A DNA stretch of 64,000 bases, from positions 111,250 to 175,249 of the forward strand of contig CAVXYC010000018.1 of the NCBI GenBank assembly GCA_963765765.1. The letters run 5' to 3'. Position 1 is the stretch's first letter. Every line of letters begins with the position of its first letter. Of this stretch, positions 35,597 to 45,221 are shown piece after piece. Under the pieces are notes generated by a model that was given only the letters and a program-made list of their open reading frames with translations, did no database searches and was not told the origin of the DNA. The DNA is from an uncultured Chloroflexia bacterium. Lineage in GTDB: Bacteria > Chloroflexota > UBA6077 > JACCZL01. Position numbers and translations under genes: made by a program.

Positions 35597-36379
35597 TCAA
35601 TTTGCCCGACGCTCCCGTGGCAGCCAGTCAAGCCCTTCAAGCGTGCCGTTGGCGGGGCGATACTCGAGCGAGACGTAGCCTGAGTAACCAGCAGCGTCGA
35701 TGGCCGACAGCAGATTGGGATAGTTGATCTCGCCGGTGCCGGGCTCGTGTCGGCCGGGCACGTCGGAGATCTGGATGTGACCAATCTTGTCCAGGTTGCC
35801 CGTCACGGTGGCGGTCAAATTCCCCTCCATGATCTGCATGTGATAGGCGTCGTAGAGGAACTTGACCGACGGGCTCGCCACGGTATCCACGATCTCGAAA
35901 CCGACGCTGGACCTATCGATCAGATAGGTGGGGTTATCGATGGTATTCAAGCCTTCGATGCACAGCGTAACGCCGGCGGATTCGGCCTGTGGGGCGATGC
36001 GTCGCAAGTTCTCGATGGCGACAGACTTCGCCGTATCAACCGCTACGCCATCTGGGACGAGCCCTGCCAGCGGATTGATCAAGTGCGCACCGAGCCGCTC
36101 GGCCACTCGTAGCGCGTCCTCCATCCCAGCCTTGAAACGAGCCTCCTGACCGGGGTGACACATGTAGCCGCGCTCGCCTCGAGCAAAGTCTCCACGGTCT
36201 GAATCGAATAGGATCATCTCGACGCCGCTGTCCTTGACCGTCCGCTCCAGCTCATCGAGATCGTGCTCCTCGGGGAAGAGGAACTCCACGTGGGTGAATC
36301 CCGCATCGGCCGCGCGTTTGAATCGCTCGAGCGCTGGCCACTCACTGAACATGAATGAGATATTCGCGGCGAACTTCAT
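35597..36379 (-). CDS. hydroxypyruvate isomerase-like sugar-phosphate isomerase/epimerase (xylose-isomerase-like TIM barrel)
   Basis: MKFAANISFMFSEWPALERFKRAADAGFTHVEF.. and ..GHIQISDVPGRHEPGTGEINY are typical of the Hyi family. Confidence 0.8.
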   Translation of the reverse strand: MKFAANISFMFSEWPALERFKRAADAGFTHVEFLFPEEHDLDELERTVKDSGVEMILFDSDRGDFARGERGYMCHPGQEARFKAGMEDALRVAERLGAHLINPLAGLVPDGVAVDTAKSVAIENLRRIAPQAESAGVTLCIEGLNTIDNPTYLIDRSSVGFEIVDTVASPSVKFLYDAYHMQIMEGNLTATVTGNLDKIGHIQISDVPGRHEPGTGEINYPNLLSAIDAAGYSGYVSLEYRPANGTLEGLDWLPRERRAN

Positions 36380-36568
36380 GGCCTACGCTCCCGGACTTGT
36401 GGATAGCGAGCTCCGAAGTACATATCGGAGGTGTTAGATCGGCTGAAGACTACCACGATTCCGGACGCTATTCTCTTCACCGCTGGTACCATTGACAGCG
36501 GATGCCGCCCTTACCGCCGCTCGAGTGATATCGGCGTCTGGCTCGCACGACCACGAGAGGAGCAGCCT

Positions 36569-36883
36569 ATGGCAGTGCACAGCGCGACCAGCCCCCTGAC
36601 CCAGCGAGAGCTCATCGAACAGCACTTCGTGGAGCATCGAACGATGGTGCTTGACATCGCGGCCTTCCTCGATCGTCTGGATCGCGCCCGTGAGATCGAC
36701 GCTTCGGACGACTTCCGGCTCATCGCCTTCCGCAAGGCGCTCGAGGTGCTCTGCTCGGATGATCCTTCTCGGATTCACACAATCCAGATGGTCCTGAGCG
36801 ATCCGCGCTCCGAGCTCCTACCCGAGCTGGACCGCAAGAGCGCCTTCGGTGCCTACCCAACGCAGGAAACGGAGACCCGCTGA
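36569..36883 (+). CDS. hypothetical protein (sits where eboA sits in ebo operons; identity not established)
   Basis: ATG 36569 after gagagg. Its stop overlaps the next start (TGATG), implying translational coupling. Confidence 0.5.
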
Positions 36884-37713
36884 TGGAATATATCGACATC
36901 CATTCACACATGGGCTCCCGCACCACCGACGATTACGAGCAGATGGCGCTCACCGGCTGCGTGGCATTGACGGAGCCTGCCTTCTGGGCAGGCTATGACC
37001 GAGGCTCCTCCCAGGCATTTCGCGCCTACTTCGAGCAGCTCACCGATTTCGAGCCGAAGCGCGCCGCGAAATACGGCATCAAGCACTTCACCTGGCTGTG
37101 CTTCAATCCGAAAGAGGCGGACGATCGCGCGCTTGCCGCGGACGTGCTACCGCTCATCCCGGAGTACCTGGACCGGCCGAACGTCATAGGCATCGGTGAA
37201 ATCGGGCTCAATCGCGTGACGCGCAATGAGCTGGCGACCATGGTGGATCACATCGACCTGGCCATGCAGTACGACCAGATCATCCTGGTGCACACACCAC
37301 ACCTCGAAGACAAGTACAAGGGTACGAAGGTGATCGTCGACACCATGGCCGCGGACCGGAGGATCAGTCCGACCCGCGTGTTGATCGATCACGCAGAAGA
37401 GCACACCATGCCGATGATCCAGGAAGCCGGCTTCTGGGCGGGCATCACGCTCTACCCACAAACCAAAGTCTCGCCCGGGCGCGCGGTCGACATGATCGAG
37501 ATGTTCGGGAGCGACAAGATTTGCGTTGCTTCTGCCTGTGATTGGGGGCCGTCCGTTCCCACCGCCATGGCTCACTTCGTCCTGGAAATGCGCCGACGGG
37601 GCCATCCCGATCGGCTGATTCGGAAGATCGTCTACGAGAACCCGATCGAGTTCCTGAGTCAATCACCCAAGTTCGAGCTTCCGCGCCTGGAAGCAGCGGC
37701 AATTGCGCGTTGA
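36883..37713 (+). CDS. eboB: TatD-family metal-dependent hydrolase, EboB-like
   Basis: [55 protein letters not shown]. Gene context includes UbiA and an alkaline-phosphatase-family gene. Confidence 0.6.
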
Positions 37714-37727
37714 TGAATGACAGAGTC

Positions 37728-37929
37728 GCATCCCGTGAAGGTGCGGCTCCTCTCGTGATGTTCGCTGAATCGGTCAGAGCCGCGACCGTGAGGAAGCGGT
37801 TCCTTCACGACCGGTCGGACGGCGATCTCGCGAGGAACCGCTTACTTACGTGCGCGGCTCGAAGGCTGGCTAGGGAGTGTCATCCGGGACGGAAGTGTTC
37901 GTGAGAGGGTCCGCACCCTTACGGGATGC
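37728..37929. repeat. about 200-nt nested imperfect palindrome between the TatD-like and UbiA genes
   Basis: The outer arm gcatcccgtgaaggtgcggctcctctcgtgatg pairs with gttcgtgagagggtccgcacccttacgggatgc. The inner arm gagccgcgaccgtgaggaagcggttcc pairs with ggaaccgcttacttacgtgcgcggctc. Confidence 0.7.
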
Positions 37930-37951
37930 GGCTCTGTTGGTGAGAGTGACC

Positions 37952-38842
37952 ATGTCTCCTGAAGCCCTTCCTTCCAGGGTGACTCACCGGAAGCGAATCC
38001 TTGGCTGGCTCACGTCAATGCGCCTGTCCAATAGCCCCACGGTCGTAAGTAACGTGTTAGTGGGGGCGGCGCTGGCTGGCATTCTCCAGCCAGATCATCC
38101 GTCTGTGGTGATGCTGGCCGTAGCAATGGTGCTCTATTACACAGCCGGCATGATTCTGAATGACGTGTGTGACTTCGCCTGGGACACGGTGCACCGCCCC
38201 AGCCGTCCCATGCCCGCCGGAGTCGTCTCGCGTGGGGCCGGCGCGGTGGCTGTCGTCGTGCTTTTCGCCGTCGGTACAGTGCTGCTCTGGTACGCCGGCG
38301 GCATCAACAGCGTCATCAGCGGCGTCATCCTCATCGGAGTCATCGCCCTGTACGACTTCTGGCACAAATCCAACCCAGCAAGCCCCCTGGTGATGGCATT
38401 GTGCCGTGTGCTGGTATACGTCACCGCGTTTGTTGCATTCGCATGGCCACTCACGGCATCACTCGGGATCGCGTCGCTCTTGCTTGTGCTTTACATGACG
38501 GGACTCACGGCGATCGCAAAGAGCGAAGTGCGCCCAAGCATGGTGGGTTATTGGCCCGCGGCGATTCTGTTCATGGGGCCATTCTTTTATGGAGTTCGCG
38601 GTGGATCGTTCCAGGCGGCCATCCTGGCAACCATGCTGGCAGGATGGATTCTGTACAGTCTTCACACGGTGTATCGAGAGGAAAGCAGAAACGTCGGTCT
38701 AGCCATTGGTCGCCTCATCGCCGGAATCTCGATGTTCGACGCGCTTGTGCTGGCTTCAGCGGGCGCCACGCAATCCATCATGGTGGCGCTGGTCGCCTTT
38801 GGTACAACGCTCGTCTTCCAGCGATACGTCGAGGGCACCTAG
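37952..38842 (+). CDS. eboC: UbiA-family aromatic prenyltransferase, EboC-like
   Basis: Asp-rich motif NDVCDFAWD, about 8 TM segments. ATG 37952 follows ggtgagag. Confidence 0.7.
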   Translation: MSPEALPSRVTHRKRILGWLTSMRLSNSPTVVSNVLVGAALAGILQPDHPSVVMLAVAMVLYYTAGMILNDVCDFAWDTVHRPSRPMPAGVVSRGAGAVAVVVLFAVGTVLLWYAGGINSVISGVILIGVIALYDFWHKSNPASPLVMALCRVLVYVTAFVAFAWPLTASLGIASLLLVLYMTGLTAIAKSEVRPSMVGYWPAAILFMGPFFYGVRGGSFQAAILATMLAGWILYSLHTVYREESRNVGLAIGRLIAGISMFDALVLASAGATQSIMVALVAFGTTLVFQRYVEGT

Positions 38843-38844
38843 AT

Positions 38845-40246
38845 ATGCAGAAGACCGCTGTCATTGACGTCGTCGGGCTGACACCCGATCTCATTGGGCC
38901 GCACACCCCCCGCCTGCAAGCGTTTCAGGCCGCCGGTAAAACAGCGAGCATTCAACCGGTCCTCCCCGCGGTAACGTGCGCCGCTCAGGCCACGTATCTC
39001 ACCGGCACCCTGCCCACTGAGCACGGCGTCGTTGGAAACGGCTGGTATTTCCGCGACGAGTGCGAGATCAAGTTCTGGCGACAATCGAATCGACTCGTGC
39101 AGCGTCCCAAGATTTGGGAACAGGCTCGCGAAGCTCGACCCCGCCTTCACCTGCGCCAACATGTTCTGGTGGTTCAACATGTACTCGTCCGTGGACGCCG
39201 CCGTCACTCCACGTCCGATGTATCCAGCCGATGGACGCAAGCTACCAGACGTCTGGGCCTCACCGGAGCATCTTCGAGGAAGGCTCCAGGCGGAGCTCGG
39301 GCAGTTCCCGCTCTTTCAGTTCTGGGGTCCCGGAAGCTCCATTGCCTCCAGCCAGTGGATTGCAGACGCCGCTCGCCTGGTGGATCAGTGGAACGATCCA
39401 ACCTTGAACCTGATCTATCTACCGCACCTGGATTACAGCCTGCAGAAGTACGGTCCTGACCACCAGCGCATCTCACAGGAACTGAAGGCCATCGACAAAG
39501 TCTGCGGTGACCTCATCGACCATTTTCAGGCTCGAGACTCCAGTATCGTCATGCTGTCTGAGTACGGCATCCGAGCCGTTAACCGCCCCGTCGATCTCAA
39601 TCGTCTTCTTCGGCAGCGGAGCCTCCTGGCCGTTCGCGAGGAGATGGGCCTCGAGCTGCTTGATGCGGGGGTGAGCCGAGCATTCGCCGTGGCCGATCAT
39701 CAGATCGCACACGTATACGTGAATGATCCCGAGTGCATGAACGAGGTCCGCTCGCTACTGGAGCAGACGGACGGCGTGGCGGAGATCCTGGACGACGAAG
39801 GTAAGCGCGCGCGGGGTCTGGATCATGAGCGCGCGGGCGACCTCATCGCTGTTGCAGAGCCAGACGCATGGTTCACGTATTACTACTGGCTGGATGACGC
39901 GCGAGCACCGGACTATGCGCGCACAGTGGAGATTCACCGAAAACCGGGCTACGACCCGGTAGAGCTGTTCCTGGATCCGGCAATCTCACTACCGAAACTG
40001 CGCATCGGTTCCATTCTGCTGAAGCGGAAGATCGGTTTTCGGTCACTCCTGGACGTCATCCCGCTCGACGCCTCGCTGGTCCGAGGATCGCACGGGCGCG
40101 TGACAACCGATCCCGGGCAATCACCCGTACTCTTGACTAACCGACCGTCGCTTCTCGAAAGCGAGGTCCTTCAGGCAACCGATGTCTACGGTGTGCTTCT
40201 CTCGCATCTACAGGATGCTGTCCGCGCTCTGAGCCCATCACGTTAG
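38845..40246 (+). pseudogene. eboF: alkaline-phosphatase-superfamily nucleotide pyrophosphatase/phosphodiesterase, EboF-like; frame change near 39128-39131
   Basis: MQKTAVIDVVGLTPDLIG..PAVTCAAQATYLTG..HGVVGNGWYF (frame of ORF 38401..39459), then KLDPAFTCANMFWWFNMYS...YLPHLDY... (ORF 39032..40246). Confidence 0.65.
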
Positions 40247-43828: not shown

Positions 43829-45221
43829 TCAGCGTTGAACTCCGGCGATCCCTGCATCAACGAGAGCCCGAATGCTCTCGGCGTCATCGATGCGCTGGCA
43901 CACGCCGATGAGCGTTTCCACCTGCTCCGAGCCTCCAGGAATCTCCGGAATGAGCGCCCGTACGATCTCCGTGTCCGCTGCGAAATCGAGCTTGAACTCA
44001 TTCCCCGTGGCCTGCGCCCGATACGTTGTTCCATCCTTCAGCTTGATCGATACGAGTGGACTGAGCGGTGCGGTGTCGGCGGAGCCAACGACCTCAACCC
44101 GCTCGGCCAGCGCCTGGGAAGCCTGATGTGTAGGTAACCGGTCGATGCCCTCGATGGGCGATGACCAGCCGTCGGGACGATCCGCCGGCAGCGCAAATCC
44201 GCGATTCACGCATGCCGCCGCAACGACGAACGCGGTGGTGCCCAGCCCCCTGCGTCGCCCGTATGCGCTGGCGAACTTGGCGCCAGGATAGCTCGTCTCG
44301 AAATCGTTCATTTCGACGCGAGCCGACTCGATTTGATCGGGGTGAATATCGTGACCCCGCGTAAGATCGAGCATCATCTGCGTGGGTGGCTGGTTGAACA
44401 TCGATGTCGGGTAGCGCTTGAGGGTCACCTCGAGGATCTCCCAACGCTGTCCGAGATGGTCCGCTATGTGATCGAGGCCATCATTGGAGCCTGTGAACGA
44501 GTAGTAGAAGCCAATCGGGCCTTCAAGTGATGTATCCGACGCACGAGCGCCCTGAGCCGCAAGCTGGGCGGCCAGTAGACCACTTCGTGGTGCTTGTGAC
44601 ACCTGCAGCACCATGACGTCGGTCCCATCACCACCCTCGAAGGTTCCCGCGGAGAAGGTAGCCGCGAAGCCGATTGCGTGGGTCATCTGCTCTTCGTTCA
44701 ACCCAAGCAGCTTTCCCACCGCCACGGCCGCGCCAAAGGTGCCATAAATTGGGCTAGACCGGAAGCCTTGCTCATTGCTGCGGGGAATGAAGTCGGCAGT
44801 AATCGCTGTCTCCACCTCATAGCCTGCCACCAGCGCGGTCAGTAGATCCCGACCATTCGAGCCCAGAGTCTCGGCCGCGGCAAGCGCCGCGGGGATGATC
44901 ATCACTCCGGGGTGACTGCCCGTGTGATAGGCATCTTCTTGAAGCTTGCGCGTGCATCAAGGCGCTGTTGACGAATGCCGCCGCGCCCGGCGTGGCGCGT
45001 TCTCCGGTGACCAGGATCGTGGCGCCACCGTCTTGCACCGATTCATCCATCAGGACCGCCGCTTTCGCTCTGTGCGCGGCACCGCTACCATGGCCCGCGA
45101 GACCAACGCCTATGTTGTGAAGCAAGCAGGCTCGGGCTTTATCCAGTACCTGTGGCGGAAGGTCCTCGCAGTTCAGACCACTGGCAAAACGGGCAAGTCG
45201 ACGCGCGAGTGTATCGGACAT
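43829..45221 (-). pseudogene. MmgE/PrpD family protein; frame change near 44948-44951
   Basis: MSDTLARRLARFASGL..LHNIGVGLAG.. (ORF 44817..45221), then LQEDAYHTGSHPGVMIIPAALAAAE... (ORF 43829..44905). Confidence 0.8.

Follow-up and report, generated by a model that had tools for sequence, protein, structure and literature searches.

A probable reduced eboG-type ebo cluster, eboG-eboB-eboC-eboF, in an uncultured Chloroflexia bacterium

Can a part of the ebo pathway serve a cell in which eboD and eboE are missing? This question is raised by four plus-strand genes at positions 36569-40246 of a 64,000-nucleotide stretch of DNA, called the window below, from an uncultured Chloroflexia bacterium (GenBank assembly GCA_963765765.1, contig CAVXYC010000018.1). 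Few biosynthetic gene sets of long-unknown function are as widespread in bacteria as the ebo genes, and the pathway was recently tied to the algal signal thallusin (preprint, bioRxiv 10.64898/2026.05.21.724671). Comparison with complete operons indicated that the locus is very probably a reduced eboG-type ebo cluster, eboG-eboB-eboC-eboF, which would have arisen from the gene order eboD-eboG-eboB-eboE-eboC-eboF by loss of eboD and eboE.

Identity of the four genes

A sequence-only reading of this DNA had reported four plus-strand genes and a divergent 260-aa Hyi-like TIM barrel, and all of them were recovered where it had placed them. The first gene, eboG (36569-36883), is preceded by a GAGGAG Shine-Dalgarno sequence ahead of its ATG and encodes a small helical protein of 104 aa. 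Its stop codon overlaps the start codon of eboB (36883-37713; a 276-aa metal hydrolase of the TatD/amidohydrolase fold) in the sequence TGATG at 36881-36885. The third gene, eboC (37952-38842), encodes a membrane prenyltransferase of UbiA type with 296 aa, which belongs to the eboG-type clade. The gene starts with the ATG at 37952, and the same start is used in the nearest relative, the metagenome contig L105. Two nucleotides separate its stop codon TAG (38840-38842) from the ATG at 38845 of eboF (38845-40246), which encodes a phosphodiesterase/pyrophosphatase of the alkaline phosphatase (AP) superfamily (PF01663) and contains a one-base frame break near 39133. The translational coupling proposed earlier was therefore seen for eboG-eboB and for eboC-eboF, but not for eboB and eboC, which lie 238 nt apart. 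A second TGATG, with which eboB ends (37711-37715), leads only into a 63-codon open reading frame (ORF; 37713-37904), for which profile and Pfam searches returned no family match.

The UbiA protein has 297 relatives in a large protein collection, and all named ones belong to metagenome-assembled genomes (MAGs) of Chloroflexota. On longer contigs of related MAGs, UbiA relatives at 55% identity were found in six-gene operons with the order dehydroquinate synthase (DHQS)-like protein, small ORF, TatD-like protein, TIM barrel of about 400 aa, UbiA and PF01663, that is, eboD-eboG-eboB-eboE-eboC-eboF. Two such complete operons, L022 and L023, served as references. The barrel of L022 scored 465 bits on NF035939 (TIM_EboE; cut-off 250) and its cyclase 585 bits on NF004852; consequently, the L022 references are genuine. 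The EboB of the window is 71-72% identical to the EboB proteins of full operons, and 91% identical to that of a second genome of its own genus (G001). For EboC the identity to L022 and L023 amounts to 55-56%, and the two pieces of EboF are 66-68% identical to EboF of L022.

In L022 and L023 a small ORF stands between eboD and eboB, and the small protein of the window shares 59-64% identity with it. A scan of species-representative genomes with the EboB alignment found the same EboB family together with a small upstream ORF in Thermithiobacillus tepidarius (L031) and Trueperaceae (L030); Stieleria also carries this EboB family. The eboG variant of the ebo operon was defined by Yurchenko et al. 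2016 (PMC5133447) for Thermithiobacillus, Deinococcus/Truepera and Herpetosiphon. Since the same small ORF lies directly upstream of eboB in these published eboG-type taxa, the small protein is EboG. The sequence-only reading had proposed the composition eboA/B/C/F and had remarked that the first gene does not look like a typical EboA. Its assignments of B, C and F stand, and so does the remark, as the small protein gave no match to the EboA domain NF035938 at E<=0.01; it is EboG rather than an atypical EboA. EboA (NF035938) was not found in the whole genome either, in a search that ran without a positive control. The AlphaFold model of EboG, described as confident (pLDDT 81), consists of three helices, and its fold had no match in the PDB (best E 1.6). 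This three-helix model without structural relatives, together with the invariable position before eboB, suggests that EboG may be a partner subunit of EboB and not an enzyme. A Cys-to-Ser exchange in the 'CPLTQ' motif of EboG was considered as a sign of decay and rejected, since full operons likewise have Ser or other residues at this position. An EboG homologue directly upstream of EboB was also observed in many Planctomycetota, Verrucomicrobiota and allied genomes (L062-L067, L087 and L095-L101); for those phyla the 2026 thallusin preprint reports only the absence of eboA and leaves eboG unmentioned (bioRxiv 10.64898/2026.05.21.724671).

Phylogenetic trees agreed with these assignments. In the EboB tree the window protein nests in a clade with 99% support that contains full operons of Trueperaceae, Thermithiobacillus, Acidobacteriota and Chloroflexota. 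The concatenated tree of EboB, EboC and EboF likewise placed the locus inside the eboG-type clade. The TatD-like and the AP-family protein thus fall inside, not outside, the EboB and EboF clades of complete operons.

The scores on curated models were low, and an unrelated pathway that uses TatD-like, UbiA and AP-family enzymes, for example in polyprenyl-phosphate sugar or lipid chemistry, had to be considered. The window UbiA scored 50.6 bits on Pfam UbiA, 94.8 bits on NF035940 (EboC), where the cut-off of 250 was not reached, and 93 bits on NF045897 (SCO3242-family prenyltransferase), below the cut-off of 260. EboB reached 25.2 bits on PF01026 (TatD DNase; cut-off 27). Moreover, a 42%-identical EboB-like paralogue in relatives of the same family adjoins a gene resembling GT2 polyprenyl-phosphate glycosyltransferases. 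However, EboC of the complete operon L022 scores equally low on NF035940 (101.7 bits), as does that of Trueperaceae (88 bits). The higher value of T. tepidarius (350.7 bits) belongs to an EboC for which Yurchenko et al. (PMC5133447) inferred an exchange for a homologue of the ABCDEF-type group. The low score of the window EboC thus appears to be typical of its clade. As the window proteins are 55-72% identical to, and nested among, genes of complete operons with bona fide EboE and EboD, an unrelated pathway is extremely unlikely.

Conserved residues and motifs were retained. EboB keeps the columns HxH, E106, H137/H140, D169-H170 and D220, and the ligand columns are invariant; its nearest solved structure, 3guw (AF_1765), is an uncharacterised protein and no proven DNase. 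EboC keeps the NDxxDxxxD motif. PF01663 matched both pieces of EboF, in which the region of the Thr44 nucleophile is kept when the gene is read through. All columns with at least 97% conservation are kept in the window, namely 63/63 in EboB (125 homologues), 48/48 in EboC and 90/90 in EboF read through (63 homologues). Only a handful of residues are specific to the reduced type; they are conservative exchanges (E80D of EboB, for example) and are indistinguishable from shared ancestry.

Absence of eboD and eboE

The assembly that contains the window (G000; 6.49 Mb, 92% complete, 6.9% contamination) was searched for EboE by hidden Markov model (HMM) and by tblastn with two Chloroflexota EboE proteins as queries, and none was found. 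The only DHQS-like gene of this assembly is AroB, which scored 361 bits on TIGR01357. With EboD it shares 33-39% identity, and the same applies to all genomes of the family. EboD is a sugar-phosphate cyclase (DEI synthase), and EboE a TIM barrel with the xylose-isomerase fold. The earlier statement that the EboD cyclase and an EboE of about 400 aa are absent was thereby confirmed, not only for the window but for the whole assembly.

The search was extended to the ten genomes of the same family. G000, G001 (same genus g1, 92% complete) and G005 (genus g5, 97% complete, 6 contigs) gave no EboE match by HMM or tblastn, and all three are without both genes. EboD and EboE were found in G004 only. 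The positive controls for EboE all scored: L022 with 465 bits, the genomes G004 and G028, and six members of genus g75. Of 401 sampled genomes of the phylum, 11 have eboG-type EboB; among these, the members of genus g75 and G004 have EboE. EboE is also present in G028, which comes from an earlier sample of 40 genomes of relatives.

One conceivable explanation for the missing genes would be that eboD and eboE lie in the unassembled part (about 8%) of the genome, with ebo genes scattered as in Planctomycetota. The completeness of 92% and the contamination of 6.9% leave room for this, and scattered ebo genes are known (preprint, bioRxiv 10.64898/2026.05.21.724671). A Gemmatimonadales MAG (G415) indeed carries a block eboG-eboB-eboC-eboF (L036) and has EboE (418 bits) on another contig. 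On the other hand, both genes are lacking in three independent assemblies with the reduced block, one of them 97% complete in 6 contigs, and both are readily seen in the full-operon family member G004. We regard this explanation as very improbable. The Gemmatimonadales case demonstrates that adjacency of eboB and eboC alone is no proof of the loss of eboE, and L036 was rejected as an independent case of a locus without eboE. In a Verrucomicrobiae MAG (G416) a block eboG-eboB-eboC (L085) was observed, and no EboE match was found in its 5.3-Mb genome; it may be another lineage without eboE in a different phylum.

Conservation and history of the four-gene unit

In G001, G005 and the metagenome contigs L105, L106 and L132 the genes follow the order eboG-eboB-eboC-eboF, or whatever part of it the contig holds, with eboC directly after eboB. 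The four-gene set is thus conserved as a unit in relatives, and the suggestion that the locus represents a reduced or variant pathway was borne out in so far as it is a conserved reduced ebo variant. In G005 the flanks differ from those of the window and the four genes stand in the same order, which indicates that they move as a unit.

Is this unit still functional, or is it what remains, without function, of a decaying ebo operon? Two genes of the pathway have been lost, eboF contains a frame break and a palindromic element separates eboB from eboC. Within genus g1, EboF diverges about 3-fold faster than EboB, which exceeds the 95th percentile of full-operon pairs (2.45), with EboB distances that are very small; the EboC/EboB distance ratios of reduced loci lie within the range of full operons. 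Decay is contradicted by the ratio of nonsynonymous to synonymous substitution rates (dN/dS), which amounts to 0.017-0.12 for all four genes, both pieces of eboF included, when the window is compared with G001 and L105. The compared genomes share the reduced state, and consequently purifying selection acted after the loss. Furthermore, eboF and the other three genes are intact in G001, G005 and L105, and every highly conserved residue is kept in the window. A relic is accordingly quite improbable. The four remaining genes are a working module and not debris: purifying selection has preserved them in at least two genera of a single family of uncultured soil Chloroflexota.

The sequence-only reading had overlooked that the AP-family gene lies in two frames. 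About 96 codons at the start share the frame of 38845, and all that follows is read in the frame that closes at 40246. PF01663 is split accordingly, with model positions 2-98 on the first piece and 102-342 on the second, and tblastn with an intact homologue gave two high-scoring segment pairs with a frame change near 39122-39135. The break corresponds to one extra base near 39133, outside any homopolymer; a 92%-identical contig in the soil (rhizosphere) run X3 is without this base. Similar single breaks occur elsewhere in the same assembly. A PrpD/MmgE-like gene (window positions about 43829-45221, minus strand) is split into two frames, and so is the gene of inositol-3-phosphate synthase (MIPS) on contig C19 (about 235.6-236.9 kb). 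Such splits point to assembly indels or to gene breakage on a wide scale. With further conserved genes of the same assembly divided in this way, the frame break in eboF is probably an assembly indel, which also weakens the case for decay. Public runs were searched for reads of the source sample without success; even the best of them cover no more than 18% of the words and represent just related strains.

The spacer between eboB and eboC (37714-37951, not assigned to a strand) consists of 238 nt of nested palindromes with a minimum free energy as RNA of -141 kcal/mol over this length and with outer arms at 37726-37746 and 37911-37931. It is made of two repeat units, of which more than 20 contigs of the genome contain complete or partial copies. 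The spacer appears to be an element of the repetitive extragenic palindromic (REP) type. It occupies the position of eboE in full operons. In L105, the closest relative, there is just a hairpin of about 30 nt at this junction. A scan for promoters and terminators gave nothing above shuffled expectation.

How often the reduced state arose was examined in the trees. Loci with adjacent eboB and eboC occur in at least two separate places in a well-supported subclade. In the concatenated tree they need four state changes, of which the starred branches force at least three, and a single clade of the six Chloroflexota-type loci was rejected (approximately unbiased test, p-AU 0.0009). One loss, confirmed in whole genomes of g1 and g5, is secure, as is at least one further eboB-eboC junction, which is known from a contig alone.

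In genomes with scattered ebo genes, eboG-eboB and eboC-eboF stay paired. The eboC-eboF pair also occurs on its own: on the soil contigs L133, L145 and L153 it was found with no eboG, eboB, eboE or eboD within 3-5 kb upstream. On L173 eboC stands alone, again with none of these genes within 3-5 kb upstream, and the contig ends within the gene.

Possible function of the reduced set

The ring of thallusin and of saccharoquinoline is reported to be made from a cyclitol and aspartate, and EboC to farnesylate 6,7,8-trihydroxyquinaldate (preprint, bioRxiv 10.64898/2026.05.21.724671). Canonical EboC farnesylates quinoline carboxylates (PMC9235831) and planctomycete EboC hydroxyquinoline carboxylates (preprint, bioRxiv 10.64898/2026.05.21.724671). 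The genes eboB, eboC, eboE plus eboF are named the essential core for thallusin, each reportedly being required in Stieleria maiorica (same preprint). Without EboD and EboE, we infer that the canonical route to the cyclitol-derived ring would be closed in this cell.

The locus shares features with several known systems and differs from each of them. Compared with the eboG-type operon (PMC5133447), the orthologues of EboG, EboB, EboC and EboF are present in the same relative order and in the same EboB clade, eboG is immediately upstream of eboB and overlaps it, and eboC is immediately upstream of eboF; however, eboD and eboE are gone here from locus and genome, and a REP-like palindrome lies at the position of eboE. 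Three of the four genes of the thallusin core (eboB, eboC and eboF) are present and conserved here, and the EboB family includes Stieleria, whereas eboE is absent. The preprint defines a cluster by at least four of nine Maribacter/Saccharomonospora queries, and the window locus would probably escape this definition. The Actinomycetota-type locus of Saccharomonospora is also without eboD, and the window UbiA scores about equally on NF045897 and NF035940 (93 versus 94.8 bits); that type keeps eboE and clustered ino1-3, whereas the present genome has no eboE and its MIPS gene sits on a different contig with no ebo genes nearby. Other partial sets are the ABCEF set of Leeuwenhoekiella (no eboD), planctomycetes without eboD and Nostoc PCC 7524 with eboD only, which were treated as recent losses or gaps of draft assemblies (PMC5133447). 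They show that the loss of single ebo genes is possible. In contrast to the window set, which is conserved across genera under selection, none of them is without eboD and eboE together while keeping eboG, eboB, eboC and eboF. A conserved eboG-eboB-eboC-eboF set is described neither by Yurchenko et al. (PMC5133447) nor in the 2026 preprint.

One way to account for the missing genes is a functionally complete pathway, in which non-homologous host enzymes, for example MIPS and small TIM-barrel isomerases or dehydratases, replace EboD and EboE and yield the same thallusin-type product. Such a replacement has a parallel in Actinomycetota without eboD, which carry ino1-3 instead (preprint, bioRxiv 10.64898/2026.05.21.724671). 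MIPS is present in G000, G001 and G005, and in genus g1 a small Hyi-like TIM barrel adjoins eboG. This neighbour (35597-36379, minus strand; 260 aa) is a Hyi/OtnI-like protein of the xylose-isomerase fold with 285 bits on TIGR03234 (cut-off 353), 274 bits on NF043033 (cut-off 325) and 151 bits on PF01261, and is probably unrelated to ebo. As a stand-in for EboE it was rejected: orthologues (56-62% identity) exist in 8 of the 10 family genomes with or without ebo genes, the gene lies next to eboG in genus g1 only, and in G005 it is unlinked and on another contig. MIPS does not qualify as a clustered replacement for EboD: it has no linkage to the ebo genes, and G004, the genome with the full operon, has it as well. 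Inositol catabolism is unsupported as a source of the ring, as the IolE-type dehydratase gave no match at cut-off in the family and none at all in G000 or G001. A conserved extra gene was sought beside the reduced loci, and their flanks share no gene. Finally, the Actinomycetota of the parallel case still keep eboE (same preprint). Replacement by host enzymes is thus unlikely. The remaining neighbours of the four genes in the window, a major facilitator superfamily (MFS) transporter, a cupin and a MocR-type regulator, have no pathway link to them.

As eboD and eboE were lost together, a shared front end can be proposed, in which EboD and EboE would supply a modified cyclitol. The persistence of eboG-eboB and eboC-eboF as pairs in scattered genomes suggests two back-end modules. 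In a cell with the back end alone, EboC would most likely prenylate a hydroxylated aromatic or cyclitol-derived acceptor from outside the cluster, either acquired from neighbours or supplied by other metabolism. The metal hydrolase EboB with its small partner EboG, and EboF as a phosphodiesterase/pyrophosphatase with a Thr nucleophile, would carry out the same hydrolytic and phosphate-removing steps as in the full pathway. The product may then be of the same meroterpenoid class, formed by salvage, or a different prenylated compound. We give this use of a salvaged or other acceptor, which is deduced from gene content, a little less than an even chance. Its stricter form, a self-sufficient late-stage or salvage module that has dropped the front end with its costly ring formation and prenylates a ring precursor set free by neighbouring bacteria with complete ebo sets, or another hydroxy-aromatic acceptor, giving a cross-fed or novel meroterpenoid, is possible but more doubtful. 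If identity and mechanism are forced into one compromise judgement, the explanation as a whole is fairly probable.

Several observations weigh against it. Deletion of eboE alone abolishes thallusin in Stieleria maiorica (preprint, bioRxiv 10.64898/2026.05.21.724671); with eboE essential for thallusin, a set without it cannot run the published route unaided and has no demonstrated path to thallusin. The comparison of the flanks of the reduced loci disclosed no conserved replacement enzyme, transporter or precursor source. EboE on a separate contig of the Gemmatimonadales MAG shows that a compact block may coexist with a distant eboE. In this very sequence eboF is broken and the REP insertion separates eboB from eboC, and the locus was not found in any RNA run. 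The tree test did not reject one common loss before genera g1 and g5 diverged, and consequently the evidence for recurrence rests partly on metagenome contigs of uncheckable genomes.

A four-gene set without eboE that is kept under purifying selection across genera amounts to a natural deletion experiment on the core which the preprint treats as indivisible. It suggests a split of the pathway into a front end (eboD and eboE) and a back end (eboG-eboB and eboC-eboF) and predicts that EboE acts with EboD on the cyclitol; if this is true, EboE would belong to the front end rather than to a universal core. If the back end indeed uses imported precursors, this would be an example from soil of metabolic cross-feeding, or of cheating on a signalling molecule. 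The set also offers compact constructs, such as the intact version of G005, for feeding tests of the roles of EboB, EboG and EboF. Nothing is overturned by this natural dissection of the pathway, whose middle steps are still to be assigned.

The second, divergent EboB-like gene mentioned above (42% identity) forms a long separate branch. It was found in the family relatives G009 (L019, 8674-13541), G007 (L020, 7248-11275) and G002 (L021, 8622-10414). In L019 it occurs with a UbiA protein and an AP-family enzyme, in L020 with a small TIM barrel, a UbiA protein and a phosphatase of the EEP family, and in L021 it adjoins the GT2-like gene. These loci are an ebo-like system of another kind.

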